Below, one piece after another: positions 1-16,363 of a DNA stretch of 32,858 nt. Source of the stretch: Bradymonadia bacterium. Lineage in GTDB: Bacteria; Myxococcota_A; Bradymonadia; REDH01. The DNA lies in assembly GCA_044236985.1 (NCBI GenBank), contig JBIIFW010000001.1:1-32858 (forward strand), given 5' to 3'. The translations under genes were made by a program, and so were the position numbers. Numbering within the stretch: the stretch's first letter is position 1; the number at the start of each line of letters is the position of its first letter. The notes beneath the pieces were generated by a model. The model was not told where the DNA came from, made no database searches, and worked only from the letters and a program-made list of their open reading frames with translations.

Positions 1-806
1 CGGCCGTGCTTCACTGCGCCTGTGCCGTTGCTTCGACCTTCGATGCAGGCAGAGCTGCCGATGCGGCCTTCATGGCGGTCAACGCGGATGGAACGGCCAA
101 TCTCGCGGACGAGGTGATGAAGGTTCCTGGGCTGCGCTTTGTGCAGGTCTCGAGCACGGCGGCGATGGGTGCACCGCAGACTGCGGTGGTGGGGCCAGAC
201 AGCCCCTGCCAGCCGAAGACGCCTTATCAGCGGTCGAAGCGGACGGCAGAGCTGCTGCTGCTCGAGCGGGCGGAGCGGGGGCTCAATGTGGTCATCGTCC
301 GCACCTGCGTTATCGCCGGTCCGGGCAAAGAGCGGAGCGAGCTGCTCAAGATGTTCAAGCTGGTGAAGGCTGGCCTCTTTCCCTTCCTGGGCAACAACCT
401 CGACATCCAGAAGCCGCTCATCGACGTTGACGATGTGGTGCAGGCGCTGCTTCTGGCGACCGAGCGTGGCACGGGCGGCGGTATCTATCTGGTGACTTCA
501 GGCGCCCGCCACACCATGCGTGAGATTCTGGAGGTGGCGCAGTCGCTGACAGGTGGACCTCGCACCCACGTCGCCATCCCTGTGGCTGCTGCCCGTCTCG
601 CGGCGCGCGCCTTCGCGCAGGCCGGCAGGTTCCTGCCAGACTGGAATGTGCCCATCACCGATGAGCGCATCGATCTGTTTCTGGCAGACCGCCAGATCGA
701 CATTTCGCGCGCGGAGCGCGAACTCGGCTATGCGCCGAAACACCAGAGCGTCGAAGAGATGCTGGGTGCCACCTACCGGTACTATCGGCAGCGAGGGATG
801 ATATGA
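1..806 (+). CDS. NAD-dependent epimerase/dehydratase family protein (extended SDR), N-terminus outside window
   Basis: The frame is open from the window edge to TGA 804-806. 'VQVSSTAAMG' (catalytic Ser strand), 'KTPYQRSKRTAE' (YxxxK) and 'NVVIVRTCVIAGPG' are the conserved blocks of sugar-nucleotide epimerase/dehydratase SDRs. The Rossmann GxxGxxG is not seen because it lies upstream. Confidence 0.75.
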   Translation, partial: AVLHCACAVASTFDAGRAADAAFMAVNADGTANLADEVMKVPGLRFVQVSSTAAMGAPQTAVVGPDSPCQPKTPYQRSKRTAELLLLERAERGLNVVIVRTCVIAGPGKERSELLKMFKLVKAGLFPFLGNNLDIQKPLIDVDDVVQALLLATERGTGGGIYLVTSGARHTMREILEVAQSLTGGPRTHVAIPVAAARLAARAFAQAGRFLPDWNVPITDERIDLFLADRQIDISRAERELGYAPKHQSVEEMLGATYRYYRQRGMI

Positions 807-1624
807 GCCAGACGAAGCATGAAGGCGCTGTGCGACAGCGCGAGACGGAGCCGCTTGGCATCACCTACGACCGGCTCCGGCTGGACGCGCTGCTCACGCG
901 GCTGGTGCGGGAGCGGGGGATCAAGACGGCGTTGGAGCTTCCGGCCGACGGGGCGAAGGCGATGCCCAGCATTTACAGTTTGGCGCTTGCCCGGGCTGGG
1001 GTCCATGTGACGCTCTATCGCCCGGAGGAGCAGGGGCTCGAGGTCTGGCGCCGGCTCGGGCTTATCGACAAGGTAACGGCCGTCTACGAAGGGACGCCGG
1101 CTGCAACGGGGTTGCCGGATCGGTCGTTCGATCTGGTCTGGAACTTCGTCTCGGTGGGTTTCCGCCCCGACTTTGGCGACATCATCGGCGAGATGGCCCG
1201 GCTGTCGAACCGGCATGTGCTGACGGTGCACTGCAACGGCTTCAACTGGGGCTATCCGTGGCACAAGCTGCTGCACGCGGCCTTCCGGCTGCCCTGGACG
1301 CATGGTGAGACAGCCTACTTCTTCCCGAACCGGGTCCGCGACGTCTACCGCGGTCGCGGCCTGAACCCCGCAGAGTTCGGCCACCTCGACATGCCATGGT
1401 GGCCCGACCCGCCCGGTTTCCGCGACGTGCGTCTGCACCTTTCGGGCGGCGACCGGGTGGAAGACCTCGAGTGGACCGCGCCGATTGAGGCCATCTACGC
1501 GGGCGGCGAGGTACCGAAGCTGGTGCAGCGGCTCGCGAAGATCGAAGAGAGCGAGATCCCGACCCCTGTTCGGACCGTCTTCAGCCATCTCTTCTATCAG
1601 CTCGGTGAGAGGACCAGCGCGTGA
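803..1624 (+). CDS. Methyltransferase-fold-like protein, function unknown
   Basis: ATG 803 overlaps the upstream stop (ATGA), with GAGGGA 6 nt upstream. 'ALELPADGAKAM ... VHVTLYRPEE ... FDLVWNFVSV' has the spacing of class I SAM-MT motifs, but the glycine-rich motif I is degenerate. GC3 codon bias is strong. Confidence 0.55.
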   Translation: MSQTKHEGAVRQRETEPLGITYDRLRLDALLTRLVRERGIKTALELPADGAKAMPSIYSLALARAGVHVTLYRPEEQGLEVWRRLGLIDKVTAVYEGTPAATGLPDRSFDLVWNFVSVGFRPDFGDIIGEMARLSNRHVLTVHCNGFNWGYPWHKLLHAAFRLPWTHGETAYFFPNRVRDVYRGRGLNPAEFGHLDMPWWPDPPGFRDVRLHLSGGDRVEDLEWTAPIEAIYAGGEVPKLVQRLAKIEESEIPTPVRTVFSHLFYQLGERTSA

Positions 1625-3507
1625 AAGTAGTCGTCGAGAGGTCGGGGGCAGCCCGGGCGGACGACGAGGCTGACGAAGAGGTTGCCCCGCGGGAGAATCC
1701 GTTCGAGCCGCACGCGGTCTGGTACTGGCCTGTGGCTCTGCTTCTCTGCCTGCTCGCGCTGGCTGTCATCTGGGTGCCCGCCTTTGTGCCAGGCCAGGAC
1801 ACGCCGGTGCACGCCTTCTTTGCGCGGGTGCTGCGTGAGCGGGGGCTGTTCGCGGGGATGCTGGAGGGGCGGTTCGCGCCGACCTCGCAGCTCTCGGTCT
1901 ATCTGAGTGTGCCGTTCGCTTCGCTTGAGCCCGCGCTGGTGGGCAAGCTGACGCGGACAATCGCTGGGGGGCTGCTGCTGGCAGCGATGCTGCTCTGCGG
2001 GCGTGAGACGGGTGAGCGGCGGCCCATCGGATTTCTGCTGGCGCCGGCGCTGACCTGCGCCTTTCCGCAGGCGATGGGTTTCGACAACTTCGCGCTCGGA
2101 ATGGCACTTGGTGTGCTGACGATCGCTGCGACGTTGCGGGCGCTCTCGGGGCGCAAGATTTGGTATCTACTTGGTTTGATGGTCGCGGGCATGCTGCTGG
2201 CGTTCGCCCATGCGGTGGCCTTCGGGTTGACCGCGGTGGTGGCAGGGATGCTGGCGCTGCTTCTCGCTACCGACCGGATGAGCACTCGGTTCGCACGGGT
2301 CGGCCTGACATTGATCGGGTTTCTTCCTGGGGGGCTCTACGCCATCGGGGCCACGCTATTGGTGACGGCGACGCAGGCGTCGAATGGCGTCTCGGAGGGG
2401 CTCGGCGTGCAGCGTCTGCCGCTGTTGGAGCAGGTGATGAACCTCTGGGAGGTATCGTTCGGTGGCTTCTCCGCGTTCGGCCTGCTGCCGGTCTTGGTGG
2501 CCTTCAGTGCGTTCCTGCTGCACCTTCGTGGGCGTTCGGAGGGCGGGCGCCGCACGCGTCTGTTTGTGGGCGTCACGACCGTGGCACTGCTCGGACTCTA
2601 CTTCGCGGTGCCGTTTCACATTCCGGGTTGGGCCTACGCGCAGCCGCGTGTGCTGGCGGCGCTCTTCACGCTCCTGCTGCCCTTCGCGGCATGGGGTGGC
2701 AAGTGGCGCTTCTTTCTACCGGCCTACAGCGGGCTCATCGCGGTCTTCCTCGGCGCGAGTATCGTCGGCGCCACTGCGATGGGCGAAGAGGTGCGGGGGG
2801 AGGTTTCACGGATGGGGCGGACGGGTCCGGGGCTGGTGATGCCGGCTGTAGTCTCGGGCGGTCGCACATCTGCGAACAGCTATGTTTCACCGCTTCAGAA
2901 CGCAGCCTACTATGCCCTGTGGGACGGCGGTGCGCTCCCGGAGATGTGGGTCAGCAACCCGGCGATTCACGCGGTGAATGGCGTTGCGGGTGTCGAGACT
3001 CCGCCCGCGCCGCCAGCCTACTTTGCGCGGTCGCTGGCCTGCGATGGGACGGTCACCTGTGAGGCTGCGCGGCGGCGGTTTGTGGACCGCATCGCGACGC
3101 AGGGCGTGGCGTTCGGACGGACGCTGTTGGTGGGTGCCGACGATGGCCTGCTGGCGCAATTCGGTGCGCGCGGATTCGTGCCGGTCGCACCGGCGCAGTT
3201 CACCGCTCATCCCGGTTCTGCACGGGTTCGATTCCGGATTCCTCCGGAGGCAGCGGCGCGGGCCGTTTCGATTCGGCTGGGCTACACAGGCTCGATTGGC
3301 TGGTTCGCCGGCATGACGCGCCCGGCTGGCCCGATTCCGGCCGATGGGATGGCCGAGGTCCGATTTGGCGGGCTGCCCGCGGGCGTCACGCAGCTGATGA
3401 TAACGCTCGACGCGTCGGAGGAGGCTTCGGCGCAGTCGCTCTATCAGGTGGAGTGGGAACAGGGCGCGGGCCGCGAGCAGGTGGTGACGCTCGGGGTCGA
3501 ACCCTAG
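1621..3507 (+). CDS. Polytopic membrane protein with soluble C-terminal domain (GT-C-like candidate)
   Basis: GTG 1621 overlaps the upstream TGA (GTGA), with GAGAGGA about 8 nt upstream. The first ~400 aa contain about 10 or more hydrophobic helices. An acidic motif 'GQDTPVH' follows the first TM. The last ~220 aa are non-hydrophobic. I recognise no family by eye. Confidence 0.65.
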   Translation: MKVVVERSGAARADDEADEEVAPRENPFEPHAVWYWPVALLLCLLALAVIWVPAFVPGQDTPVHAFFARVLRERGLFAGMLEGRFAPTSQLSVYLSVPFASLEPALVGKLTRTIAGGLLLAAMLLCGRETGERRPIGFLLAPALTCAFPQAMGFDNFALGMALGVLTIAATLRALSGRKIWYLLGLMVAGMLLAFAHAVAFGLTAVVAGMLALLLATDRMSTRFARVGLTLIGFLPGGLYAIGATLLVTATQASNGVSEGLGVQRLPLLEQVMNLWEVSFGGFSAFGLLPVLVAFSAFLLHLRGRSEGGRRTRLFVGVTTVALLGLYFAVPFHIPGWAYAQPRVLAALFTLLLPFAAWGGKWRFFLPAYSGLIAVFLGASIVGATAMGEEVRGEVSRMGRTGPGLVMPAVVSGGRTSANSYVSPLQNAAYYALWDGGALPEMWVSNPAIHAVNGVAGVETPPAPPAYFARSLACDGTVTCEAARRRFVDRIATQGVAFGRTLLVGADDGLLAQFGARGFVPVAPAQFTAHPGSARVRFRIPPEAAARAVSIRLGYTGSIGWFAGMTRPAGPIPADGMAEVRFGGLPAGVTQLMITLDASEEASAQSLYQVEWEQGAGREQVVTLGVEP

Positions 3508-5351
3508 TCGAGGGGTAGGTTGAGTCGGCGGGCCAGCTCGCGCACGGCAGGGTGGTCGGGCGCACGCTGACGGAGCCGGCCCCAGTAGGCGTCGCGCTGT
3601 TCGACGGCAGCGGAGCCAAGCGAGCTGTAGAAGAGGACGAGGAGGCTGTTGCTCTGGACGCCGTCGGGCGATGCTGCGTGCATGCGGAGGAGCTCATCTT
3701 CGATTGCCGCAAGCTGGCTGCGCTCACCGGCAGCGGCGCGGAGGGCCGCGCCAAGCGAGGCCACAGGGTCGGAGGGGCGGATGAACCGGAGCGCCTGCGC
3801 CTCGAGCGTCGGGTAGCGGCCGCGGCGGGCGTAGATCGTAGCCGGTTCGGACCAGAAGATGGGGACGAAGGCGGGGTCTCGGTCGAGGAAGCCGAAGGCC
3901 GGGCTAACACCGGGGTTGGCCGCAAGGACCCAGTCGCTCGAGAGACGCTGCTCGATGTCGCGGAAGGCGGCAGGGTCGTCTTCAGCGGTCACGCAGTCGA
4001 GGAAGAACTTGGGGTCGAAGACCATGTCGTTGCGACCATCGACCAATGTCTGCAGGCGCGGTGCGCCGGCCCAGATGAGGTAGCCGCCAAAGTGAAAGGC
4101 GTTGTGGACGCGGGGCCCAAGTTTGTGGGTCTGAGCGAAGGCGATGGCGGCTGCGGGCATCTGCGGCGACTCGCCCACACCAAGTTCGTGGGGCGCGGTC
4201 ACTTGGATGAGTGCGGCGCCCATGGCCGTGGCGGCAGTCACCGCCGAGGCCGACCGCAACGCTGGCAGCCGGAAGGCATGACGCTCGGCGAACCAGACCA
4301 GAAGCAGGAGCGCGGCGGCGGCGAGATAGGGAAGCCAGCGTACCGACCCCGGCGCCTGGGCGAGGAAGAGGAGAAGGACTGCCGCTGGCCAGGCGATACC
4401 TGCGAAGGCTGTGTCGCCGGCTGCGAGCCTTCGGAGAGCGATGAGGGCCGCGACCAGTGCGGAGGCGGTGAGGAGGAGGAGCGTCGGAAAGTGCTGCCAG
4501 GCCTCGTGCAGCGAGATGGGCTGGAACTCGGAGACATGCTGGCGGTAGATTTCGGTGTTCATGACACCGAAGGTGGAGGTGAGTAGTTCCTTGCCTGCGG
4601 GGTGCATCAGGGCGGCAACGAGGGGCGCAAAGGTGAGCAGTGCCGCAGCGACGAGGCCGCGGCGATCGGGCGGTGGCCCGAAGAGCTGTCGCGCTCTGTT
4701 CCAGCGCGCGAGGAGTCGTGCGGTAACGAGGTAGAGGAGCAGGCCTACGAGGAGCGGCGCGATGGCGAGGCCACCGCGGTGGAGCTGGAGCCAGGTGACC
4801 ACGAGCATCGCGGTGGCCCCGAACCAGGCGGCGAGTTCACGGCCTGGTGCGCGGCGCTGCGCGGCCGCGCGGGCCTGCTCGAGGAGGACCAGCGCAATCG
4901 GAAAGAGGGCAAGGGTGAAGAGGCGCGGCCGGGGTGTGGCGCTCATCGAAACCGCAGCAAGGTAGAGAGCGGCGAGCAGCACGGGCAGGAGGCCGCCACG
5001 GTGCGGGGCAAGCGAATGGAGCGCGGCGGGCAGCGGCAGGAAGAAGAGCGCCCCCAACAGCGCAATGGCTGCATATCCTGCAGCGGCGAAGGCGCCCCAG
5101 AGGAGGAGGTCGCCGCCGAGGTCTTTGATCCGCCACGGCTGTCCGAAATGGGAGAAGGAGAAGGGGTCGGTAGGGAGTGTGGAGCCGGTCGCTGCGGCGA
5201 GCCTTCCTGTTGCGAGATGCCAGAAGGCATCGGGGTCGCCTGTGACCCTCCAGGTCGTGGCGAGCCCCAGCAGGAGCCCTGCGACGAGCAACAGCCAGAG
5301 ACCACCCGGCGGGGCAGTCCGAGGCGCTGGCTGAGGCGTGTTTCCGTCCAT
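3504..5351 (-). CDS. Polytopic membrane protein with periplasmic C-terminal domain (GT-C-like candidate)
   Basis: The ORF is open to 5633, but I place the start at ATG 5351 ('MDGNTPQ...GGLWLLLVAGLLLGL'), just before the first TM. 'GDPDAFWHLATGR' follows TM1, and many TM helices fill the first ~400 aa. The soluble C-terminal part contains 'FHFGGYLIWAGAPRLQTLVDGRNDMVFD'. Confidence 0.7.
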   Translation of the reverse strand: MDGNTPQPAPRTAPPGGLWLLLVAGLLLGLATTWRVTGDPDAFWHLATGRLAAATGSTLPTDPFSFSHFGQPWRIKDLGGDLLLWGAFAAAGYAAIALLGALFFLPLPAALHSLAPHRGGLLPVLLAALYLAAVSMSATPRPRLFTLALFPIALVLLEQARAAAQRRAPGRELAAWFGATAMLVVTWLQLHRGGLAIAPLLVGLLLYLVTARLLARWNRARQLFGPPPDRRGLVAAALLTFAPLVAALMHPAGKELLTSTFGVMNTEIYRQHVSEFQPISLHEAWQHFPTLLLLTASALVAALIALRRLAAGDTAFAGIAWPAAVLLLFLAQAPGSVRWLPYLAAAALLLLVWFAERHAFRLPALRSASAVTAATAMGAALIQVTAPHELGVGESPQMPAAAIAFAQTHKLGPRVHNAFHFGGYLIWAGAPRLQTLVDGRNDMVFDPKFFLDCVTAEDDPAAFRDIEQRLSSDWVLAANPGVSPAFGFLDRDPAFVPIFWSEPATIYARRGRYPTLEAQALRFIRPSDPVASLGAALRAAAGERSQLAAIEDELLRMHAASPDGVQSNSLLVLFYSSLGSAAVEQRDAYWGRLRQRAPDHPAVRELARRLNLPLD

Positions 5352-5487
5352 GTTTCCGGAGTCCGAGAGAGAGCTGACTGCTACCGAGTGGCTGCGGTGG
5401 TTCGCAAGCCAAATGCCGTGGCGCGGGTGGAGTTTGACTGCTGCCCCTGCTAGCCGAGCAGAGAGATCCTGTCTTCTGGAGGCGCCG

Positions 5488-6252
5488 GTGCAACGCGAGC
5501 AATTTGAGCTGCATGCTGAGCTGGAATCGCGCCACTGGTGGTTTGTGGGTCGCCAGCGCGTGTTGCGGGCCATCGTGGAGCGGCTCGGCAGCCCCGTCGC
5601 CGGAGCAGAGATGTTTGAGTTCGGCTGCGGCACCGGCGGGACGCTGGCTGCGGTCGGAGGCGGCTATCGGTGCGCGGGTGTCGACCCGGACGCGGCGGGG
5701 ATTGCGGCGGCACAGCAGCGCTTTCCGCAGCATCAGTTTTCGGTCTGGCAGCCTGGTGAGCCCCTGCCGGCGGCGCTCGGCCGCGCTGAGGTCGTCTTGA
5801 TGCTGGATGTGCTGGAGCACATTGAGCGCTCGAGAGAGGCACTGGCTGCGGTCCTCGAAGCCATGAAGCCGGGTGCCCACCTGCTCATCACGGTGCCTGC
5901 AGACATGAGCATCTGGAGCGCGCACGACGAGCACTTTGGCCACTATCGACGATACGACGAGGAGATGCTGCGCTGGGAGTGGAGCGGCCTGGCTGTGGAG
6001 GTTCGCCTGCTGAGCCACTTCAACGCGCTGCTCCATCCCGTGGTGTCGGCAGTGCGTCGCGTGAATCGGCTGCGGGGCCGGTCGTCGGGCGAAGCGGGGA
6101 CCGATCTCTCCATGCCGCCTGATGCTGCAAATCGTCTCCTTACGCGGCTCTTTGCGCGGGAGCGGCGGGCGCTTGTTTCGGCGATCGACACGGGGCTTCC
6201 TGCCTATGCGCGCGGGGTGAGTCTGGTTGCGCTGCTTCGGAAGCTTCCTTGA
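5488..6252 (+). CDS. Class I SAM-dependent methyltransferase
   Basis: 'MFEFGCGTGG' is SAM motif I. 'VVLMLDVLEHI' and 'LLITVPA...WSAHDEHFGHYRRY' are also present. I chose GTG 5488 as the start because GGAGG sits 5 nt upstream. The ORF is open from 5338, which would overlap the divergent gene. ATG 5413 is an alternative start. Confidence 0.75.
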   Translation: MQREQFELHAELESRHWWFVGRQRVLRAIVERLGSPVAGAEMFEFGCGTGGTLAAVGGGYRCAGVDPDAAGIAAAQQRFPQHQFSVWQPGEPLPAALGRAEVVLMLDVLEHIERSREALAAVLEAMKPGAHLLITVPADMSIWSAHDEHFGHYRRYDEEMLRWEWSGLAVEVRLLSHFNALLHPVVSAVRRVNRLRGRSSGEAGTDLSMPPDAANRLLTRLFARERRALVSAIDTGLPAYARGVSLVALLRKLP

Positions 6253-6260
6253 GTCGGGCG

Positions 6261-7010
6261 ATGCTCGAGGCGCTGACCCTCGTTGTGCCATGTTACAACG
6301 AGGCGAGTCGCTTCGATGCGGGGCGATTCGGCGAGGCACTCGGGCGCTTTCCGGGGCTGCAGCTCCTGCTGGTGAACGACGGCAGCAGCGACGCGACGGA
6401 GGCGGTCATTTCAGCCTTTGCCGCGACCTCGGCAGGGCGGGTCCGGACGCTGTCGCTGGCAGAGAACTGCGGGAAGGCCGAGGCGGTTCGGGTGGGGATG
6501 GGGGCCGCATTGGATGGCGGGGCTGGCTGGGTGGGGTTCTGGGATGCCGACCTCGCCACACCGCTCGCGGCGCTGGAGGAGTTTTCGGCGGCGGCCGCGC
6601 GCCACGGCGAGGCGCGGGCCTTGATTGGGTCGCGCGTACGGCTGCTGGGCAGGGAGATCGACCGCAATCCGGTTCGCCATGTGCTGGGTCGGATGTTCGC
6701 GACGGCGGCCTCTGTGACGCTCGATCTGCCTGTGTACGACACGCAGTGCGGTGCGAAGATTTTCCTGGCCGATGAGACGCTTCGGAGCGCGCTGCAGGAG
6801 CCCTTCGCGAGCCGTTGGATCTTCGATGTGGAGCTGCTCCAGCGCCTCGACAGGGCCTGGCTGCGTACGACCGGGCGGCGTGCGACAGCCTATCTTGTCG
6901 AGGTCCCCCTCCTGGCCTGGCAGGATGTGAAGGGGAGCAGCGTGCGCGGTCGTGACTTCTTGCGGGCCGGTGCGGAGCTTGCGGTTATCCGGAGTCGCCG
7001 GGCCCGCTAG
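6261..7010 (+). CDS. GT2 polyprenyl-phosphate hexosyltransferase (ALG5/Dpm1/GtrB-like)
   Basis: 'LTLVVPCYNE', 'LLLVNDGSSDAT', 'FWDADLATP' (DxD) and 'YDTQCGAKIF' match the ALG5/Dpm1 'TQCGFK' block. At about 250 aa it has the typical size. TTG 6249 is an alternative start that overlaps the upstream stop. Confidence 0.85.
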   Translation: MLEALTLVVPCYNEASRFDAGRFGEALGRFPGLQLLLVNDGSSDATEAVISAFAATSAGRVRTLSLAENCGKAEAVRVGMGAALDGGAGWVGFWDADLATPLAALEEFSAAAARHGEARALIGSRVRLLGREIDRNPVRHVLGRMFATAASVTLDLPVYDTQCGAKIFLADETLRSALQEPFASRWIFDVELLQRLDRAWLRTTGRRATAYLVEVPLLAWQDVKGSSVRGRDFLRAGAELAVIRSRRAR

Positions 7011-9034: not shown

Positions 9035-9208
9035 GGGACCGGCGCGGCGAGACGAGTGACGAGCCGACAGTGCGGCTGCGGTGCAGGGTATCGTAGCGGA
9101 ATGGCGACGAAAGGGATAAGAGAAAGCGAAGGCTCGGCGTTGGCGAAAGCGCATCCGATTGCCCGTCGCCCTACCCGGGATCTGCTCTTGTACGCCTTCC
9201 GATTCGAC

Positions 9209-11038
9209 ATGGCCCGTCGCGCTCTGGCCTCTGCAGCGTGGGTGAGCTTCGACCTGTTCGACACACTGCTTCGGCGGTTGAAGGGGCCGGACGAGGTTGC
9301 CGCCGATGCAGCGTCGGGCTTCGCGGCGTTGGGACTGTCGCATTGGACGAGTGCCGATATCCTCAGCCACCGGCGAGCCTGGACGATTTCACGCGAGGCT
9401 GGCTACCCACACTCGGAGGCGGAGTGGAGCATCGCCGACTGGTACGAGGCGCTCGGAATCGCCATGGGCGTTGACGCTGCAACGGTGCGCGAGGCCGGCT
9501 GCCGCTGCGAACTGGAGGCTGAGATTGCCGCAACGGTGGTGCGTCCAACAGGACTGGCGCTGCTGCTCGAGGCGCGCCGGCTGGGCCGGCGCCACTTCGT
9601 CCTGAGCGACACCACGCTAACGGCAGGGCTGATCACCGCGCTGCTCGAAGCGCACGGCCTCTTCGGCCTTGAGATCGTGGCGTCCTCGGAGTGGCAGCGC
9701 TCGAAGCGGCGCGGGACCATCTTCGCGGAGGTGGAGGCGCGGCTGGGGCTCGACGGTTTGCGCGGGCTCCACATCGGCGACAACCTGAAATCGGACTTTG
9801 TGCGTCCGCTCCAGGCCGGCTGGCGTGCTGCGCACCTGCCCCTGACCGAGACCGAAGGAGAGCTGGACGCGGCGGCTCGGACGGTACTTCGCCACCTTAG
9901 CCCTGCGGCCGATGGGCGGCAGGAGCCTCTGGCAGGAGAGGCTGCCCACTTCGTGCTCGCGACGGCCGCGTGGGTCTGCCTGCAGGAGCGACTGCTCGCA
10001 GCCGAAGCAACGCTCTTTCTCGCGCGGGATGCAGAGCCGCTGCTGGCAGCCTGCGATGCGCTGCAGCCTGCAGTTGGGCAGCGCCACTACCTGCGGCTTT
10101 CGCGGCGGTCGGTTCTGCTCGCACATCCTGGCGATCTGCTCTTCCGTGTTACGCTGTCGGGCAAGATTGGGAAGCAGTCGTTGCGGGCCTTCGTTGCGGG
10201 TTTTGAGCTCCCCGATGGCGTTGCAGAGCGTTGGCTCAGGGAGCTTGGCAACGATGCCGATGCGCCGCTCAGCGAGGCGACCATCGCAGCATGGCAAGAG
10301 GTGCTCCGACGGAATGCGGCCGAGTACGATGCCATGAAGGAGGAGCAGCGTTTGCTGCTGGGCGACTACCTCCGAGCTGTTGTTGGAGTGCGTCGCAGGC
10401 TGCTGGTGGTTGACCTGGGCTGGGCAGGAACCATCCAGGACGCAATCGCTGCGGTGCTGCCAGCCTGCGAGGTGCACGGCTGCTATGCAGGTGTCACGCG
10501 TGGCGGTGAGCCCTCTTCTTCGCGGGCGTCGAAGCAGGGTCTCGTGTTCGATATCCCCGCGGGCAGAGGCGCTCCGCTGCTGGGGACAAGCGCAGGGGTG
10601 ATGCGCCTGTGGGAGCTGCTCCTCCGCGAGCCAACCGGCTCGGTGCGGCGGCTGGTGCGAGACGAAGCCGGCGTGGTTTCGGCGGAGCTCGACAGGCCAC
10701 CGCCGCTCACCGCCGCTGCACTCGAACTGGCACACGAGGCGCGGTCACGCCTTCTGGAAACGGCGCGCGTTGCCGGGCCTTCCTACGCGCAGCTGCTCGC
10801 GCTGCAGGATGATGTCTGCAGCCGGCTCCTCGAACGCATTGCCCGACGCGCCTGGGAGGGGTTGACGCTGCTGCCCGACGGCGCCTTCGCGCGGCGTATC
10901 CTTGATATCGAGATGGACGAAGGGGCGAGCCGTGGCGTGTTGACGACACTCGGCATTGGCGGGCTCCGCTCCGGCGTCAGTTGGTGGCCGGGGCTGGTGG
11001 TCGCCTCGCTCACCGGCCGCGGTGCAGGCCAGCCATGA
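9209..11038 (+). CDS. HAD-superfamily hydrolase-like protein (COG5610-type) with long uncharacterised C-terminal region
   Basis: 'VSFDLFDTLLRR' is HAD motif I (DxDxT), 15 aa after ATG 9209. 'FVLSDT' and 'LHIGDNLKSD' fit motifs II and IV. The ORF is open from 9056, and ATG 9101 is an alternative start. Confidence 0.65.
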   Translation: MARRALASAAWVSFDLFDTLLRRLKGPDEVAADAASGFAALGLSHWTSADILSHRRAWTISREAGYPHSEAEWSIADWYEALGIAMGVDAATVREAGCRCELEAEIAATVVRPTGLALLLEARRLGRRHFVLSDTTLTAGLITALLEAHGLFGLEIVASSEWQRSKRRGTIFAEVEARLGLDGLRGLHIGDNLKSDFVRPLQAGWRAAHLPLTETEGELDAAARTVLRHLSPAADGRQEPLAGEAAHFVLATAAWVCLQERLLAAEATLFLARDAEPLLAACDALQPAVGQRHYLRLSRRSVLLAHPGDLLFRVTLSGKIGKQSLRAFVAGFELPDGVAERWLRELGNDADAPLSEATIAAWQEVLRRNAAEYDAMKEEQRLLLGDYLRAVVGVRRRLLVVDLGWAGTIQDAIAAVLPACEVHGCYAGVTRGGEPSSSRASKQGLVFDIPAGRGAPLLGTSAGVMRLWELLLREPTGSVRRLVRDEAGVVSAELDRPPPLTAAALELAHEARSRLLETARVAGPSYAQLLALQDDVCSRLLERIARRAWEGLTLLPDGAFARRILDIEMDEGASRGVLTTLGIGGLRSGVSWWPGLVVASLTGRGAGQP

Positions 11039-12258
11039 AGATCGCGGTTCTCTCTCGGAGCGATGCCTCCGGCGGCGGCGCTGGCCGCGTTGCGGATGAG
11101 TTGTCGGCAGGCCTCCGCACAGCAGGCCACCGCGTGCTTCGCCTCTACCGCAAAGGCCAACCGGCGGCCGACCGCGACACGCTGGTCTTGCACGCGCTGC
11201 GCGGCGAACAGGCGTTGCGTCAGACGCTCGGCGTTGACCTTTCGTCGGCTCCGCTGCTGCTCGTGCTCGCCCGACACGGCATCGAGATGGTCCATTTTCA
11301 CGACCATCACATGGCCTTTGGCCTCCGCACCGCACAGGCGATTGCGGGGCGGCTTCCGACCTGTTTCACCTTCCACGACTACACGGGTTTCACCGGCGGC
11401 TGCCTCTACCCGGGTGCCTGTTCGCGGTACGATCGAGGCTGCGGCTCCTGCCCGGAGACCGGGCGCGGCGCGCAGCCCGCAAGGCTCGACCGTTCGGCCG
11501 CGACCTGGGACGCGAACCGGCGGTTCGGGGCGACCGCGGGTGTGGTCGGGATCTCGCCATCCTCTCACTTCGCAGAGCTCGCCGCGCGCGGGGCCTGGTT
11601 TGGTCGAGAGATCGAGGTCATCCCGAACGGGGTCGACACTGCGACCTTCTCGCCATCGGTGCGGGCGGCCTCGCGGGTTGCCGAAGGTGTCGGTGCGTCG
11701 GAGCGGGTTCTGCTCTTCGTTGCGGCGCAACTCGGCGACCCCCGCAAGGGGCTCATCGACCTCTGCAAGGCGCTTGCGCCCCGGTTTGCGCAGGACCCGA
11801 CGCTGACGCTCTGGCTCGTCGGCGGCGAGGACCAGTTGCCTCCCGACCTCGCGCTCCTTGGCGGCAGAGCGCGGCGCTTCGGTCGAATCGGGAGCAAGGC
11901 ACGGCTGGCGGAGCTCTACGCAGCAGCCGACCTGTTCCTGCTGCCGAGCCATGAGGACAACCTTCCCTGCACGGCGGTGGAGGCGCTCTCCTGCGGCACG
12001 CCGGTGATTGGGCGTCCCGTGGGCGGAATCGGGGAGATTTTCGAGCATGGCCGCAGCGGCCTGCTCGCGCGTGACCGCACGGTCGAGGCGCTCGGCTGGG
12101 CCATCGACCAGGGCCTCACGCAGCTCACCGGGCAGGATGGTCGGAGGGCAGCGCGGCGCTTTGCCGAACAGCGCTTCGGCATGGAGACCTTTGTGGCGCG
12201 CCATGAGGCGGCCTACGACCGGGCCGTCACAGCGTGGGCCGGTAAGGCGGAGCGATGA
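11035..12258 (+). CDS. Glycosyltransferase family 4 (GT-B, Glycos_transf_1 type)
   Basis: ATG 11035 overlaps the upstream TGA (ATGA). 'MKIAVLSRSDASGGGAGRVA' is a GT4-type N-terminus. 'LFLLPSHEDNLPCTAVEALSCGTPVIGRPVGGIGEI' is the EX7E retaining-GT signature. Confidence 0.85.
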   Translation: MKIAVLSRSDASGGGAGRVADELSAGLRTAGHRVLRLYRKGQPAADRDTLVLHALRGEQALRQTLGVDLSSAPLLLVLARHGIEMVHFHDHHMAFGLRTAQAIAGRLPTCFTFHDYTGFTGGCLYPGACSRYDRGCGSCPETGRGAQPARLDRSAATWDANRRFGATAGVVGISPSSHFAELAARGAWFGREIEVIPNGVDTATFSPSVRAASRVAEGVGASERVLLFVAAQLGDPRKGLIDLCKALAPRFAQDPTLTLWLVGGEDQLPPDLALLGGRARRFGRIGSKARLAELYAAADLFLLPSHEDNLPCTAVEALSCGTPVIGRPVGGIGEIFEHGRSGLLARDRTVEALGWAIDQGLTQLTGQDGRRAARRFAEQRFGMETFVARHEAAYDRAVTAWAGKAER

Positions 12259-14117
12259 GCGAGCAGAGGCAGGAGAGAGCCTCGCCGGAACGCGGGCCTT
12301 CCATCGCTTTCGGCATCTTCGCAGGGCTGCTGCTGCTCGCGCGGCTGCTGCGTCTCTCTGCAGAAGGGCTCTCGGCGAGCTTCGATTCGGCCATCTACAT
12401 CCGGAACCTCTGGGGCATCGCGCAGGGCGACTGGCATAACCCGCTGGTCAACGACCACATCTTCGGCGTTCATGGAAACTGGGTCCTCCTGCTTCTGGCA
12501 CCGCTCGTACGATTCGCCGACCCGGCATTGCTGCTGACGCTGTCGCAGGGCTTGGCGCTAGGCGCGACGGCGGGGCTCCTGCACTACGGGTTCTTGGAGG
12601 CGCTGGGCCAGCGCGCGAGCCGCGGTCGACGGTTGGCGGCGGCGACGCTGCTCAGCGCAGGGCTGCTGGCGGGGCCGGTGGCGATCAACCCATTTCTCTT
12701 CGACCTTCGCCCCGACATGCTGGGGCTCCCGCTGCTGCTCGCTGGTCTTTTGCGTGCACGGCGACAGGGCTTCGATGGTGCAGCACTGGCCTGGATGGGC
12801 GCCGCACTTTTTGTGCGCGAGGACTTTGGGATGGTGATCATCGGTGCGATGGCGACCGCGCCGTTCGGCCGCTCCTTGCTCTCGAACTGGCAGCGGCGCT
12901 GCGGCGTGATCGCGGCTGCGCTGGCCTTCTTCGCAATCTACTGGTTCGGCGTGCGGAGCTGGGTGGCACCGCAGAGCGTCGCCCGCGCAAGCAGCATCGC
13001 GTCGCAGATGCTGGACAACGCGAGCCCGCTGCCGGTGTCGCAGGTCATCGCCTACAAGGCTGAGATTTTGGCGGCGGTGCTGCTGGGCGGCGGACTGCTG
13101 CCGCTCTTCGGTTGGCGGTGGCTGGGCGTTGCAATGCCGGGCCTCGCCTTTCTGCTGATCCAGTCGCGCATGCAGGCCGACCTTCTCGACTTTCACTATG
13201 CGATTTTCGCCCTGCCCGGCTTGGCAATCGCCTCGGTGGATGGCCTCGAACGACTCGTCGCTAGGCCACGTCACGCACCGCTGCTGCTGATCTCAGCGGT
13301 CTGCATGGGCACACTGTTCGCGACGTCGAGCGCGCTTCCGGGTGGCGGGCGCCACTTCGCCTCGCGCGAGGCGGCGCGGAACGACGACGGCTCCCTACGC
13401 CTCACCGCGGATGGGCTGCCGCTCTACGAGGCGATGAATGCGATGGTGGCCGCGCTTCCCGCCAGCGATGGCGTTGCAGTGCCCTTCGCACTCTCTGCGG
13501 GCGCAGCCTCCCGCTCCACCATCGTGACGACGGAGCAGGTGAAACAGTGGGTCTCAAAGGGGGAGAAGTTCCCGCCGGACCTCCACTGGGTGGTGCTTTT
13601 CGGCAAGGACTTCGAGGGGCTCGGGAGCCGGCTGGTGAGCGAGCACGGCCTTCATTTGGTGACAACCGTGGATCAATCGCTCGCGGTGCTCACCGATCGC
13701 CCTGTACCGACAAACTGGGAGGCCTTCAGCCTTGCTGCGACGGGGTGCGCGCCCTGGGCGGAGTGGCCGACTGCAGGCGTTCGCCTCTGCACACCCGATG
13801 CTCGGCGTCCCGGCTGGTGGGTGGAGCGGACTGCGGGCGCAACGCTGCCTGCGCCAACCGACCTCTTCCTCGAGCCCGCCGGCGCCGCGCCCGTTCTCTT
13901 TCGAGGGGTGTCGGGGCTTGTTGCACTTTCGTCACTTCCCGTCGGTCGCGCGCTTCCTGTTCGCGGCGCGGACGGTTCGGGTGTATCGTTCAACGCAGCG
14001 GTGCTCGCAGCGCAAGGTCGTGCGATCTCCTGCCGCTCCACGGACGGCTCGAGCGGCCTTCGCTGCAACCTCCGCTCCATGCCTCCGACTCCGCCCGCTC
14101 AAGGCAAAGACCCATGA
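12255..14117 (+). CDS. Polytopic membrane protein, DUF2079-like (GT-C-like candidate)
   Basis: ATG 12255 overlaps the upstream TGA (ATGA). 'SFDSAIYIRNLWGIAQGDWHNPL...FGVHGNWVLLLLAPL' resembles the DUF2079 N-terminal signature; this is from memory and needs an HMM check. Many TM helices precede a ~200-aa soluble C-terminus. Confidence 0.65.
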   Translation: MSEQRQERASPERGPSIAFGIFAGLLLLARLLRLSAEGLSASFDSAIYIRNLWGIAQGDWHNPLVNDHIFGVHGNWVLLLLAPLVRFADPALLLTLSQGLALGATAGLLHYGFLEALGQRASRGRRLAAATLLSAGLLAGPVAINPFLFDLRPDMLGLPLLLAGLLRARRQGFDGAALAWMGAALFVREDFGMVIIGAMATAPFGRSLLSNWQRRCGVIAAALAFFAIYWFGVRSWVAPQSVARASSIASQMLDNASPLPVSQVIAYKAEILAAVLLGGGLLPLFGWRWLGVAMPGLAFLLIQSRMQADLLDFHYAIFALPGLAIASVDGLERLVARPRHAPLLLISAVCMGTLFATSSALPGGGRHFASREAARNDDGSLRLTADGLPLYEAMNAMVAALPASDGVAVPFALSAGAASRSTIVTTEQVKQWVSKGEKFPPDLHWVVLFGKDFEGLGSRLVSEHGLHLVTTVDQSLAVLTDRPVPTNWEAFSLAATGCAPWAEWPTAGVRLCTPDARRPGWWVERTAGATLPAPTDLFLEPAGAAPVLFRGVSGLVALSSLPVGRALPVRGADGSGVSFNAAVLAAQGRAISCRSTDGSSGLRCNLRSMPPTPPAQGKDP

Positions 14118-15565
14118 AGTTCAAGACGGCCCGAAGCCTCTTCCGCCCAGCTCTCCTCGCCGGCCTTGCACTTGGCACCTTCGCCACGCCCGCCGCCGTC
14201 TCCTCACACGGCATCATGGGTCACATGCATGTCACGGGGTGGGCCATCGAGAACCTGCCGCCAGGCGAGCTTCGCGACATGCTCACCGACCCCGAGGTGA
14301 TGAACGCTGCCATCTTCGGCTCCGCCTACACCGACTCCGGCTACTGGCCGAGGGGTTCTGTGGAGTCGCAGGCCCGAGCCTATGGCGAGCACACGCACTG
14401 GGAGCCATTCATTGAGGACTTCGTCACCTGGATCCGGGTGAACGATCCGCCTCCGTGGACCTCCCTCGAGTCCAAGAAGCGGTTCGCATTCATGCTGGGC
14501 TGCGCATCGCACGGCCTTCAGGACGAGATCTTCGACTCCATCTTCCTCGACCAGGTGGACTACCACGACAACGGCAACCAGGACATCGCCGACCCGGCGA
14601 CAGACGGCTTCCTCGCCATTGATGGCCACCTTCGGTTCATGCCGACGGAGTACTATCCGAAGGACACCGTTCTTGAGCTCTATCAGACGCTCAATATGGG
14701 CATCTCGGAAGAGACCGTCCGCTACGGCCTCGACGCAATGGAGACGCTCTATGTGAACCCCCGCAGCGGCTACGCAGTGGCGGCCGGCTTCGGGCGTCAG
14801 CACGGTGCCAAGCTCGGTTGGACGCGGGCCCACTACTTCGACGCCGATGTGCCGGGCAGCATCCGCAGCGAGATCCTTCCGACCATGCGCTACATGATCG
14901 CGCTCTGGGAGCGGGTGCAGGGGCAAAACTCCGCCGACAACCCGGTGCTCTTTCAGTACCCCGACGACGGCCGGTTCCTGCGCTCGCTCGACCCCGCAGA
15001 CCCCGCCTCATGGGTGACCATCGTCACTGCGGCGGCGGCGAAGGCCGACTTTGTAATGCCCGACTGGAAGCTCGACGACGGCACGCCGATTGCCTTCTCC
15101 AAGCACGGCACACACTGGGGTGGTCCCGATCAGTTTGCCCGTGTCATGCAGCTGCGCCCGTTGGAGCAGCTCCCCGCCGACCGCGCGTCCACCGTCAGCT
15201 GGAACTTCAACGGGCCGCTTATCAACGGTGAGGTCTCGACGGCCTCGGTGGTATTGCCCGTCCGGACCACCTGCATCGAAGGCAGCGGCGCATGCCCCAT
15301 CGGCTGCGATGCTCGCACCGGGTTCACATCACCCGAAGAGGTCGGAGCGGCTCTCGGCCGTCCGGCCTCCTGCCTTCCCGAACAAGAGGGCAGCGGCAGC
15401 GGCGCTGAAGTTGCTCCGACCGAGAGCAAGAAGGGCGACGGCGGCGGATGCCAAACGAGCAAGCCTGCCTCTGCCTGGGGCCTGCTCTGGTTCGCTGCGG
15501 CGCTGCTCGGGCTGCGGTCAGCGCGGTCGGCGCGCCGCCACCAGGATGCTGCCGCCAAAGGCTAA
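14114..15565 (+). CDS. Secreted zinc-dependent phospholipase C-like protein with MYXO-CTERM-like sorting tail
   Basis: ATG 14114 overlaps the upstream TGA (ATGA). The signal peptide is 'MKFKTARSLFRPALLAGLALGTFATPAAVSS'. His-rich metal motifs are 'HGIMGHMHVTGW', 'EHTHWEPF' and 'CASHGLQDEIFD'. The C-terminal 'GGGCQTSKPASAWGLLWFAAALLGLRSARSARRH' reads as Cys, then a hydrophobic helix, then an Arg cluster. Confidence 0.6.
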   Translation: MKFKTARSLFRPALLAGLALGTFATPAAVSSHGIMGHMHVTGWAIENLPPGELRDMLTDPEVMNAAIFGSAYTDSGYWPRGSVESQARAYGEHTHWEPFIEDFVTWIRVNDPPPWTSLESKKRFAFMLGCASHGLQDEIFDSIFLDQVDYHDNGNQDIADPATDGFLAIDGHLRFMPTEYYPKDTVLELYQTLNMGISEETVRYGLDAMETLYVNPRSGYAVAAGFGRQHGAKLGWTRAHYFDADVPGSIRSEILPTMRYMIALWERVQGQNSADNPVLFQYPDDGRFLRSLDPADPASWVTIVTAAAAKADFVMPDWKLDDGTPIAFSKHGTHWGGPDQFARVMQLRPLEQLPADRASTVSWNFNGPLINGEVSTASVVLPVRTTCIEGSGACPIGCDARTGFTSPEEVGAALGRPASCLPEQEGSGSGAEVAPTESKKGDGGGCQTSKPASAWGLLWFAAALLGLRSARSARRHQDAAAKG

Positions 15566-16363
15566 CTCTTCGCCTCGCGCGACAGCATCAACCTCGCCTG
15601 AGAGCAGGGAGCGGATGGCGCGATCGGCCAGCCCGGGTTTGTGGTCGCGCGCAACCGACGCTGCCGTCGGAGCGGCTGGCGCAATGCCGGCGCGGTAGGG
15701 GAGCGCGCGCAAGAGGCCGATGAGCGGCGGCAGCGGCCGGAAGAAATGGCCGAGGTAGCACCTCTCGAAGCCTGCCTCTTCGAGCAGTCGCGACATCGAG
15801 GCTCCTGTGTAGCGGCGGTGGTGACCTGCGGCGGCATCTTCGTGTGACCAGAGCAGCGGGTAGGCGGGTACCGAGATGAAGAGGAGCCCGCCCGGGCGGA
15901 GCGCACGACGGGTCTCTCGCAAGAACCCAACATCGTCGGCGATGTGCTCGACCACATCGAACATCCCCGCGCCGGCAAGGCATCCGTCGCGAAACTGGCA
16001 GCTGTCGAGGGTACCCTCGACGACGGAGGAGAGTCCGCGAGCATGGGCGCGGGCGGCGCCCTGCGGCCCGGGTTCCACGAGCAGCGTGGGGATCCCCAGG
16101 GCCTCGACGGCCAGTGCCACGAAGCCATTTCCTCCGCCGATATCGGCGAAGGGCGCGCCACCAAGTTCCTCGCGGTAACGAGCAATCAGCGCCGTGAGGA
16201 CCGCGTTGCGGTGGTTGAACCAGAACGAGTTCTCCTCCACAGCGAAGCAGGAAGCGTTTCCATCCGCGGGATAGGAGATCGCCTCCGCCTCCGGCGGGCG
16301 CCAGATACCATCGACACCGCGTTCGATGGACGATGCAAACTGTGTGAGGTCGAGGCTCTTCAC
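15518..16363 (-). CDS. Class I SAM-dependent methyltransferase (paralog of 5488-6252)
   Basis: 'FADIGGGNGF' is motif I. 'MFDVVEHI' and 'LLFISVPAYPLLWSHEDAAAGHHRRY' align block by block with the 5488-6252 product. The 3' end overlaps the convergent gene by 48 nt. Confidence 0.8.
   Translation of the reverse strand: MKSLDLTQFASSIERGVDGIWRPPEAEAISYPADGNASCFAVEENSFWFNHRNAVLTALIARYREELGGAPFADIGGGNGFVALAVEALGIPTLLVEPGPQGAARAHARGLSSVVEGTLDSCQFRDGCLAGAGMFDVVEHIADDVGFLRETRRALRPGGLLFISVPAYPLLWSHEDAAAGHHRRYTGASMSRLLEEAGFERCYLGHFFRPLPPLIGLLRALPYRAGIAPAAPTAASVARDHKPGLADRAIRSLLSGEVDAVARGEELAFGGSILVAARRPR

Follow-up and report, generated by a model that had tools for sequence, protein, structure and literature searches.

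What does a gene cluster glycosylate when it encodes four large glycosyltransferase-like membrane proteins, and on which side of the membrane does it act? We addressed this question for the left half of a 32,858-nucleotide stretch of DNA from a Bradymonadia bacterium (contig JBIIFW010000001.1, assembly GCA_044236985.1, positions 1 to 32,858 of the forward strand; hereafter the window). Between its left edge and position 16363 lie 12 tightly packed genes, here called g1 to g12, with hardly any intergenic DNA. A preliminary description, drawn from the sequence by itself, had read them as an envelope glycosylation locus built around enzymes of the GT-C fold. Our answer is a tentative one: we consider it quite possible, though short of probable, that the locus carries out glycosylation at the periplasmic face from polyprenyl-phosphate monosaccharides, not from a pre-assembled polymer, with type IV pilin as the likeliest acceptor and other exported proteins as alternative or additional ones.

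Fold and family of the four membrane proteins

Four polytopic proteins of about 620 residues are encoded by g3 (1621-3507, plus strand), g4 (3504-5351, minus strand), g7 (7007-9034, minus strand), and g10 (12255-14117, plus strand). Each carries, as the preliminary description had stated, an acidic motif just after the first transmembrane (TM) helix, TM1, and the acidic residue at this position is conserved in three of the families (g3, g4, and g7). The soluble C-terminal domain that had been claimed for all four is likewise borne out by hydropathy, which places 7-11 hydrophobic segments in each protein and leaves the C-terminal 200-260 residues free of them.

Modelling of the folds had been set beforehand as the test of the GT-C assignment. 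The AlphaFold 2 (AF2) model of g4, built on an alignment of 38 sequences, reaches a predicted local distance difference test (pLDDT) score of 92.4 and a predicted template modelling (pTM) score of 0.89; that of g3, a protein with eight hydrophobic segments, was built on an alignment of 11 sequences and has a pLDDT of 66.9. Both models consist of a helical bundle followed by a C-terminal domain. Using Foldseek against the PDB, the top 20 of 20 matches of g4 are GT-C enzymes (E 2.5e-7 to 2.6e-2; TM-scores 0.30-0.51, the best being about 0.45-0.5), and the list includes yeast and human STT3, PglB, AglB, the C-mannosyltransferase DPY19, AftA, ArnT, AftB, AftD, EmbA/B, Pmt4, and ALG3. For g3, 16 of the 17 best matches are GT-C enzymes, with PglB/STT3 at the top (E ~4e-4, TM-score ~0.3), then AftD and, lower, AftA and EmbB. 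No Wzy, WaaL, or SEDS structure occurs in the Foldseek lists of either model, and the flippase WzxE enters that of g3 at noise level only (E 0.23-0.73, probability 0.07-0.10). Both models thus match GT-C enzymes, not a Wzy polymerase, a ligase, or a flippase. The C-terminus of g4 is tetratricopeptide repeat (TPR)-like, matching the TPR region of g7 with a probability of 94% in hhalign, and the last 90 residues of g3 form, in the AF2 model, a beta-sandwich that Foldseek matches to carbohydrate-binding modules (CBMs) of the CBM20/CBM41 type.

At the level of sequence, neither g3 nor g4 belongs to any Pfam or NCBIfam family, even at a Pfam E value of 10, and sequence and profile searches against the sequences of the PDB gave no useful match for them. 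The g3 family comprises 803 cluster representatives (50% clustering) at E<=1e-3, nearly all of about 600 residues and matched from end to end; the few named members are called 'hypothetical protein' and come from Myxococcales or Bradymonadales metagenome bins, and none of 66 sampled members matches a GT-C Pfam model. Across 66 diverse homologues, D60, G153, H197, and P331 are invariant. For g4, at least 60 homologues were found, and in an alignment of 38 of them D41, W44, and H45 are at least 90% conserved and H191 is invariant. When the two profiles are compared with hhalign, a weak match (40%) is obtained that is in register at D60/D41, H64/H45, and H197/H191; judged by these positions, g3 and g4 may be distant relatives.

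The TPR domain of g7 (about residues 410-640) is matched by TPR families at E values down to 2e-17. Its N-terminal domain has 147 homologues, many of which, at 30-40% identity, carry PF13231 (PMT_2), PF02366 (PMT), or PF08409 (TMTC_DUF1736); g7 itself matches PF08409 over residues 258-311 at E 0.018 (15.5 bits against a cut-off of 27) and, weakly, the ArnT model of NCBIfam (E 0.015). Across 36 homologues, D33-D34, H124-P125, and K181 are invariant and E182 is nearly so, the family consensus reading FVFDD, YRPxR, GYHLTNxLLH, and HPVHTDxVTYISGRRDLL. The motifs reported for the human TMTC O-mannosyltransferases include the TMTC3 segment 'AVHPIHT', and the DD, HPxH, and KE motifs of the g7 family match those TMTC motifs (PMC7801869). 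The shared motifs and family matches support the assignment of g7 as a putative member of a TMTC/PMT_2-type TPR family. With eleven hydrophobic segments and the motif SFDSAIYI after TM1, g10 matches PF09852 (DUF2079) at E 1.9e-27 (96.9 bits against a gathering score of 28.2; model positions 5-431 of 459), a family that we take to be a member of the Pfam GT-C clan CL0111. Literature searches on DUF2079/PF09852 returned nothing informative, a search of plasmids gave no match to g10, and profiles of g10 and of the g7 N-terminal domain retrieved only TPR proteins or nothing useful from the PDB sequences. The GT-C nature of these proteins is firm for g4, reasonable for g3 and g7, and given by family label for g10.

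Conserved linkage to type IV pilus genes

The flanking DNA, which the preliminary description had proposed to inspect for Wzx, Wzy, or phosphoglycosyltransferase (PGT) genes, was read over 10 kb upstream from L001, a locus from freshwater metagenomes with an exact g2 match. In L001, g1 opens the locus, and a type IVa pilus cluster, pilB-pilT-pilC-pilS-pilR with two pilin genes, is divergent from it; no gene for Wzx, Wzy, a chain-length regulator, an outer-membrane exporter, an ABC exporter, a PGT, or a ligase is present among the genes called in these 10 kb. Scans of the window proteins with Pfam and NCBIfam likewise detected no Wzx, Wzy, Wzz/PCP, Wza/OPX, ABC exporter, PGT, or ligase, in agreement with the earlier statement that canonical export and polymerase genes are missing. 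Flanked by a pilus cluster upstream and a B12 receptor operon downstream, the locus does not, as had been suspected, look like a standard exopolysaccharide (EPS), O-antigen, or capsule locus.

Genomes and metagenomes were scanned with g3 and g2 alignments (for g3 the closer alignment was used, the diverse one being too divergent for a locus scan), and the fetched loci, numbered L001 upwards, were searched by tblastn and with hidden Markov models (HMMs). A core made up of the g7-like TPR GT-C, g1, g2, and g3, usually with a Methyltransf_23 gene, is kept across diverged loci, and it adjoins pilB in the window lineage and in L007, L009, L017, L019, L024, L027, and L028. This conserved tie of a multi-GT-C core to pilus genes is unexpected and has no counterpart in the preliminary description, whose suggested check of gene-neighbourhood conservation returned a core of the g1-g7 type that recurs in relatives, beside pilB in most of the diverged ones. 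On the far side of the core, the genes vary by locus (a GT2 with a methyltransferase, CBM9, DUF1501, an HD domain, kinases). Since these genes are not conserved and g3 is at 28-50% identity, general synteny has decayed in these loci while the pilus linkage has not. The evidence for the linkage comes from one clade, whose members are mostly uncultured.

The arrangement of the core relative to the pilus genes differs from locus to locus. The GT-C genes of L027, L017, and L009 run in the same direction as pilB, with gaps of about 30-115 bp, and g7-like genes lie next to pilB in the same three loci and about 5 kb from it in L028. One strand of L009 carries pilB, two g4-family genes in succession, a hydrolase gene, and a g7-like gene, and the other strand carries g2, g3, and a methyltransferase gene; in L012, a g7 homologue overlaps a g4 homologue by 4 nucleotides. 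The sequence of L021 begins at g1. In the cultured Persicimonas caeni, the order is a g2 homologue (57% identity) directly upstream of pilB, then pilT, pilC, pilS, pilR, pilA, a second pilA, and, directly after it, a gene for a g7-like GT-C. Beyond this gene, which spans about 1,066,248-1,068,107 of the record CP042468.1, come a 314-residue gene, a pair of ABC-transporter genes, and another gene for a g7-like GT-C. Searches of the literature for pilus glycosylation in Bradymonadales, together with a recent review of O-glycosylation, revealed nothing like this arrangement. A scan for sigma-54 promoters, made as a test of co-regulation by PilR, gave matches at chance level, none of them in intergenic DNA.

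Two of the pilus-linked loci show further features. In L024, a row of three g7-family genes (3410-9322) stands between pilB and g1, which suggests an expansion of TPR GT-C paralogues beside the pilus genes. In L007 (4118-9776; a Bradymonadales bin), a RecA-like gene, an unannotated gene of 564 residues, and a gene for an error-prone, DnaE2-type DNA polymerase III alpha subunit separate pilB from the g3 homologue, and by gene order this segment looks like an imuA-imuB-dnaE2 mutagenesis cassette.

Soluble partners, distant loci, and bounds of the locus

The short GT2 encoded by g6 (6261-7010, plus strand; its open reading frame [ORF] opens at 6249) matches Glycos_transf_2 at E 1.9e-12 and has no TM helix by hydropathy. 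It had been described as an ALG5/Dpm1/GtrB-like GT2; the GT2 family holds, whereas the subfamily label is not upheld by profile scores and rests on motifs and gene context. We regard g6 as a candidate polyprenyl-phosphate sugar synthase. The gene context comes from distant g3-family loci. In L033, a g5-like methyltransferase gene, a g3-like gene, a GT2 gene, two methyltransferase genes, and a g4-family gene (HMM E 2e-110) run in one direction; the GT2 is of the GtrB type with two C-terminal TM helices, and the 260-residue methyltransferase is the only neighbour shown to be g5-like by sequence (phmmer 5e-25). In L034, a 242-residue GT2 is the g6 orthologue (51% identity over 233 residues, with NDGSxDAT, WDADL, and DTQCGAK kept); the neighbouring g3-family gene, in convergent orientation, has about 23% identity. 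This locus also carries Methyltransf_23, two short-chain dehydrogenase/reductase (SDR) genes, a DegT aminotransferase gene, and a gene for a 464-residue polytopic protein. In L021, g3 and the methyltransferase gene are followed by genes for a GDP-mannose 4,6-dehydratase (Gmd, E 1e-152), an epimerase/reductase, and DegT. Methyltransf_23 genes flank the g3 homologues in L009, L020, L021, L033, and L034, directly following g3 in the first three, and in L017 an S-adenosylmethionine (SAM) methyltransferase gene (best match Methyltransf_11, also Methyltransf_23) follows the GT2. The proposed combination of a GT2 with GT-C enzymes is therefore supported by distant g3 homologues that lie beside a g6 orthologue or a GtrB-type GT2, and the associations in L033, L034, and L021 give the strongest support for g6 as the candidate maker of lipid-phosphate sugars for g3 and g4, with sugars that are methylated or otherwise tailored.

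The two paralogous methyltransferases and the degenerate third described before are also borne out by the profile matches. Both g5 (about 5488-6252, plus strand; Pfam E 1e-16) and g12 (15518-16363, minus strand; Pfam E 1.1e-12) belong to Methyltransf_23, and they are about 30% identical to each other (tblastn E ~1e-12). Start candidates for g5 are 5338 (the longest ORF), 5413, and 5488, the last of which matches the gene call in L001. The degenerate one, g2 (803-1624, plus strand), encodes a cytoplasmic methyltransferase-like protein with a weak Methyltransf_11 match (E 8.5e-4) and without the GxGxG SAM motif; its family profile gives a weak match in the PDB to the methyltransferase structure 3bus (E 0.5). 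Homologues of g2 are 57-79% identical while the neighbouring g3 is only 28-50% identical (L009, L017, L019, L020, L024, L027, L028, and L031), and they share long invariant blocks (LELPADGAKAMP, TVHCNG, GYPWH, and PDPPGFRD). The g2 protein is a strongly conserved partner of g3; it may be a methyltransferase-like scaffold without the glycines that bind SAM, and perhaps serves as an enzyme or as an obligatory partner.

At the left edge, g1 (ending at 806, plus strand; N-terminus cut by the window edge) encodes an extended SDR of the NAD-dependent epimerase/dehydratase type. The Pfam Epimerase match (E 4.6e-21) agrees with the sugar epimerase that had been described, the YxxxK motif reads 'YQRSK', and the full-length call in L001 has 347 residues. 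In diverged loci, its homologues are 49-76% identical and are followed almost always by g2. A sterol or hopanoid pathway, considered on account of the best NCBIfam matches of g1 (SdmB and HpnA) and a weak HpnB match of g6, was rejected, the scores being 5-10 times under the cut-offs and the context being one of glycosyltransferases. Between pilB and the called start of g1, L001 holds an in-frame Lys/Ala/Pro-rich repeat (8568-8960; AKPKPAAKAAP...), which a metagenome gene call of 471 residues in L003 includes at the N-terminus of the SDR. Topoisomerase I (21591-24317) has a Lys/Ala/Pro-rich C-terminal tail as well, which is encoded at 24192-24282 by 15- and 27-bp tandem repeats and resembles the possible g1 extension in composition.

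The remaining genes are g8, g9, and g11. The g8 product (about 9101-11038, plus strand; its ORF opens at 9056) has about 645 residues and a haloacid dehalogenase (HAD)-like N-terminal domain with the DxD motif 'FDLFDTLL'; its Pfam Hydrolase match (E 5e-5) is under the cut-off, and matches to HAD-IA models of NCBIfam are weak. The GT4 noted earlier is g9 (11035-12258, plus strand), a cytoplasmic glycosyltransferase of the GT-B fold by its Pfam matches to Glyco_trans_1_4 (E 8e-23) and Glyco_transf_4 (E 1.6e-15), with homologues in close relatives only. The exported protein g11 (14114-15565, plus strand) is co-operonic with g10 through a 4-nucleotide overlap; it shows a weak N-terminal match to Zn_dep_PLPC (E 1.4e-3, under the cut-off) and matches the MYXO-CTERM family MXAN_5453 over residues 404-476 at E 0.09. 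The C-terminus of g11, GGGCQTSKPASAWGLLWFAAALLGLRSARS, resembles a MYXO-CTERM sorting signal, which fits a Myxococcota origin and a surface-anchored product.

Coding frames were chosen by analysis of G+C at third codon positions (GC3) together with ORF lists, one frame per region; because the window has a G+C content of about 67%, the raw ORF lists are full of shadow frames. On this basis, the 12 consecutive genes that had been claimed for positions 1-16363 are confirmed, in the strand order +++-++-++++- from g1 to g12, with g4, g7, and g12 on the minus strand. All of the ATGA/GTGA start-stop overlaps of 4 nucleotides described before are present (803, 1621, 11035, 12255, and 14114). The convergent pairs g3/g4 (3504-3507) and g6/g7 (7007-7010) both end in a palindromic CTAG, in which the TAG stops of opposite strands overlap by 2 nucleotides, leaving no space for a terminator between the genes of either pair. 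The 12 genes divide into the conserved set g1-g7 and a lineage-specific extension, g8-g12, that is restricted to relatives more than 80% identical. With horizontal acquisition in mind, the GC content was followed along the locus and is even (0.66-0.69). On the right, a cobalamin riboswitch (RF00174, 16451-16634, plus strand, 101 bits) lies directly 5' of a TonB-dependent receptor gene (16685-18781), which implies B12-regulated, BtuB-like uptake by this operon. Since the riboswitch opens an unrelated operon, 16363, the right end of g12, is a sound boundary; the DNA beyond it contains the receptor operon under B12 control, topA, feoB, and other genes without relation to the locus. Two sizeable genes of the flank, at 27870-29663 (minus strand, 597 residues) and 18781-19983 (plus strand, about 400 residues), have no match in Pfam or NCBIfam.

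Known systems and competing readings

Among the closest known systems, TfpW of Pseudomonas aeruginosa group IV strains (Pa5196/PA7) is a 646-residue GT-C with 11 TM helices, a DDx motif, and a periplasmic TPR domain, which is encoded next to pilA and arabinosylates pilin (bioRxiv 10.1101/2020.04.19.049825). Compared by described architecture, g7 is similar, being a polytopic GT-C of about 650 residues with FDD at residues 32-34 in the first periplasmic loop and a C-terminal TPR domain; in Persicimonas caeni, pilA is immediately followed by the g7-like gene, which is also the position of tfpW, and a polyprenyl-phosphate monosaccharide donor would be expected by analogy. In contrast, D-arabinofuranose genes (DprE1/DprE2-like, phosphoribosyltransferase/polyprenyl phosphoribose synthase) were not found among the window proteins with Pfam and NCBIfam, g1 is an extended SDR and not a DprE2-like classical one, and the locus has three more GT-C-like proteins, SAM methyltransferases, and the g1/g2 pair; in most relatives, moreover, the gene lies upstream of pilB and not after pilA. 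With TMTC1-4 and the PMT enzymes, the g7 family shares the motifs FxxDD, YRP, HLxNxxLH, and HPxHT(E/D)xV and a lumenal or periplasmic TPR domain; the weak DUF1736 match of g7 falls in the loop position, and its homologues match PMT_2, PMT, and TMTC_DUF1736. The differences are that g7 is under every Pfam GT-C threshold, that its host is bacterial, and that its operon context is linked to a pilus.

The Gtr-type systems comprise GtrA, GtrB, and GtrC. The GT136 system has three components, a polyprenyl-phosphoribose synthase, a MATE flippase, and the GT-C ORF12, together with the SDR epimerase ORF13 (PMC11127046). The Gtr and GT136 systems resemble the present locus in having a small GT2 or synthase for a lipid-phosphate sugar (the candidate g6), an auxiliary cytoplasmic SDR (g1), and a GT-C with a carbohydrate-binding-like C-terminal domain (g3), and in a distant g3/g4 locus the GT2 is of the GtrB type, with TM helices at its C-terminus. 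The present locus differs by having no dedicated flippase gene, four GT-C-like genes instead of one, and methyltransferases, by lying outside any O-antigen locus, and by g3 and g4 having no detectable sequence similarity to known GT-C families. The streptococcal Pgf system (PgfS-PgfM1-PgfE-PgfM2) consists of an epimerase, a GT2, and two polytopic membrane proteins. In streptococcal GtrB/PgtC2, a GT2 makes an undecaprenyl-phosphate (Und-P)-linked sugar, and a GT-C transfers it to extracytoplasmic proteins (PMC12041528). Both follow the GT2-plus-GT-C logic seen here, but with GT-C enzymes of the YfhO type, in Gram-positive hosts, without a TPR domain, and without pilus linkage. Mycobacterial lipomannan/lipoarabinomannan (LM/LAM) and arabinan synthesis (GT4 PimA/B, GT2 Ppm1, GT-C PimE/Mpt/Emb/Aft) shares with the locus clustered GT-C genes and the logic of a GT4 with a polyprenyl-phosphate sugar synthase, and the models of g3 and g4 match AftA, AftB, AftD, and Emb among others; there is, however, no sequence-level homology, the locus has no phosphatidylinositol-anchor genes, and the present host is a Myxococcota-like diderm with TPR domains and pilus linkage in the locus. 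What is new is the two unannotated GT-C-like families (g3 and g4) and the pilus tie, whereas the kind of system is already known.

In the pathway that we propose, g1 would tailor a sugar in the cytoplasm, g6 would load it onto polyprenyl phosphate, g5 and g12 would methylate it, and a flippase encoded outside the locus would turn the lipid-linked sugar outward. There, g7 would hold a protein acceptor by its periplasmic TPR domain and attach the sugar, and g3 with its CBM-like beta-sandwich, g4 with its TPR-like tail, and g10 (DUF2079) would add further sugars; g8-g11 (HAD-like, GT4, DUF2079, and exported protein) would be a lineage-specific extension. The analysis shows the folds and families, the conserved loop acids, the association of GT2, methyltransferase, and GT-C genes, the pilus linkage, and the lack of export and polymerase genes; the donor, the acceptor, the order of the steps, and the methylation of the sugar are inferred. 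Type IV pilin would be the likeliest acceptor because the core is kept in or beside the type IVa pilus cluster across Bradymonadia-like bacteria, and because TfpW, encoded beside pilA, arabinosylates pilin; by this analogy, we would favour pilin with moderate confidence.

Several results weigh against this proposal. On the side of the membrane proteins, the g3 model is mediocre (pLDDT 66.9) with TM-scores of about 0.3, g7 stays under the Pfam GT-C thresholds as noted, TPR-bearing PMT_2-type proteins are common in bacteria without a pilus link, and profile-profile comparison with hhalign does not link the membrane domains of g7 and g10 to g3 or g4. On the side of donor supply, no flippase of the GtrA, ArnE/F, MATE, or Wzx type is encoded in 1-16363, a segment filled by the twelve genes, none of which encodes a small four-TM protein or matches MATE/MOP. 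The NCBIfam matches of g6 to PgfS (second-best), PpgS, and ArnC are weak and all far under cut-off, and sequence and profile searches of the PDB gave no match for it; in a search of phage genomes, GtrB aligns with g6 over residues 5-83 only, and this match was dropped as subfamily evidence, being confined to the generic N-terminal ~80 residues. As for the pilus, in the window lineage about 8-9 kb separate pilA from g1 and about 16 kb from g7, which is not adjacent to it; L020 has no pil genes within 10 kb, nor do the flanks of the distant g3-family loci L032-L034 hold any. The link to the pilus could thus be restricted to a single clade, and inherited gene order could account for it. The GT4 and HAD-like genes, moreover, are no less compatible with the synthesis of a glycolipid or lipoglycan.

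This last point leads to the thought that the glycan is not attached to a protein but forms side chains of lipopolysaccharide (LPS), O-antigen, or EPS in the manner of Gtr or GT136, or an LM/LAM-like lipoglycan in which a GT4 acts on a lipid anchor and GT-C enzymes follow, fed by a Ppm1-like GT2; the glycan would then be one that pili need, or the pilus linkage would be incidental. The combination of a GT4, a GT2, several GT-C proteins, and methyltransferases mirrors the LM/LAM logic. The g3 homologue of L032 has MBOAT and SGNH genes as neighbours, of a kind typically found where glycans are O-acetylated; in L019, g3 is followed by a CBM9-like gene; and the distant g3 loci L033 and L034 are without pil genes. 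A CBM20/CBM41-like sandwich, moreover, ends g3, as in Emb and AftD, GT-C enzymes that extend glycans, and in the GT136 founder ORF12 (PMC11127046). However, g7 and g4 carry TPR domains, which suggest that the acceptor is a protein, as it is for TMTC and TfpW; despite several rearrangements the core has not left the pil cluster, one of its positions there being directly after pilA; and the locus holds no anchor-lipid, acyltransferase, or polymer export genes; we judge a non-protein glycan to be unlikely, though it deserves serious weight. The same enzymes could instead belong to an ordinary locus for EPS, O-antigen, or capsule. In that case, the initiating transferase, the flippase or ABC transporter, and the polymerase would be encoded elsewhere, and the membrane proteins would be polymerase- or ligase-like. 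Sugar-nucleotide enzymes, a GT2, a GT4, and methyltransferases are indeed standard content of such loci, and the 464-residue polytopic protein of L034 sits among O-unit-like genes. Against it stand the matches of g4 (strongly) and g3 (moderately) to GT-C enzymes and not to Wzy, WaaL, SEDS, or, above noise, a flippase, the lack of Wzx, Wzy, Wzz, Wza, ABC, and PGT genes among the scanned window proteins and in the 10 kb upstream, and the four GT-C-like genes, which are foreign to standard Wzx/Wzy or ABC pathways, so that we hold this explanation to be very improbable.

If the acceptor is a protein, it need not be mainly pilin. General O-glycosylation, with exported proteins or lipoproteins as main targets, would resemble streptococcal GtrB/PgtC2 and Pgf, which act on Ser/Thr-rich disordered regions, and the targets here could be, for example, Ser-containing EGSGSG linkers. 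The motif E-G-S-G-S-G-(E/D/A) occurs in disordered linkers of four exported window proteins, namely g11, the lipoprotein at 18781-19983, a lipase-like lipoprotein at 20016-21401, and an M23 peptidase with four tandem copies (motif positions 15389, 18898, 20109-20115, and 31264-31363), where a rough estimate of the chance expectation is well under one; the motif may serve as a linker particular to this lineage or as a site of glycosylation. The weak PgfS match of g6 and the comparable composition of the Pgf system point the same way, as does the action of the streptococcal GT2-plus-GT-C pathway on disordered regions (PMC12041528). On the other hand, EGSGSG is linked to glycosylation nowhere, its count rests on this window since the fetched loci of relatives hold few exported proteins, the pilins read here are without it, and the conserved pilus linkage would be left unexplained. 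Exported proteins other than pilin as the main targets are for these reasons an improbable outcome in our view, and glycosylation with type IV pilin as the likeliest acceptor remains the explanation that we prefer.

A bolder form of the preferred explanation ties all of its parts together. Two new GT-C families (g3 and g4), with a shared D-x-x-x-H loop motif and an invariant membrane histidine, would act with a TfpW/TMTC-like enzyme and the g2 pseudo-methyltransferase to assemble in the periplasm, one sugar at a time, a methylated oligosaccharide attached to type IV pilin, without a PglL/TfpO-type oligosaccharyltransferase or a Wzx-flipped precursor, in predatory Bradymonadia-like bacteria. 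As a whole we think this rather unlikely, but it would be of consequence. To our knowledge, periplasmic GT-C glycosylation from polyprenyl-phosphate sugars in bacteria comprises a handful of systems (ArnT, Gtr, GT136, TfpW, actinobacterial Pmt, arabinan/LM, and streptococcal PgtC2/Pgf). The locus would add to these two GT-C-like families without a Pfam or NCBIfam model, one of them with at least 800 representatives at 50% clustering, along with the conserved partner protein g2 and a recurrent association with SAM methyltransferases. The linked genes in the cultured Persicimonas caeni make the idea directly testable. After TfpW, the locus would provide another, independent instance in which a TPR-bearing GT-C is tied into a type IV pilus cluster, and its setting is a predatory lineage, in which pili matter for motility and prey contact and serve as phage receptors.

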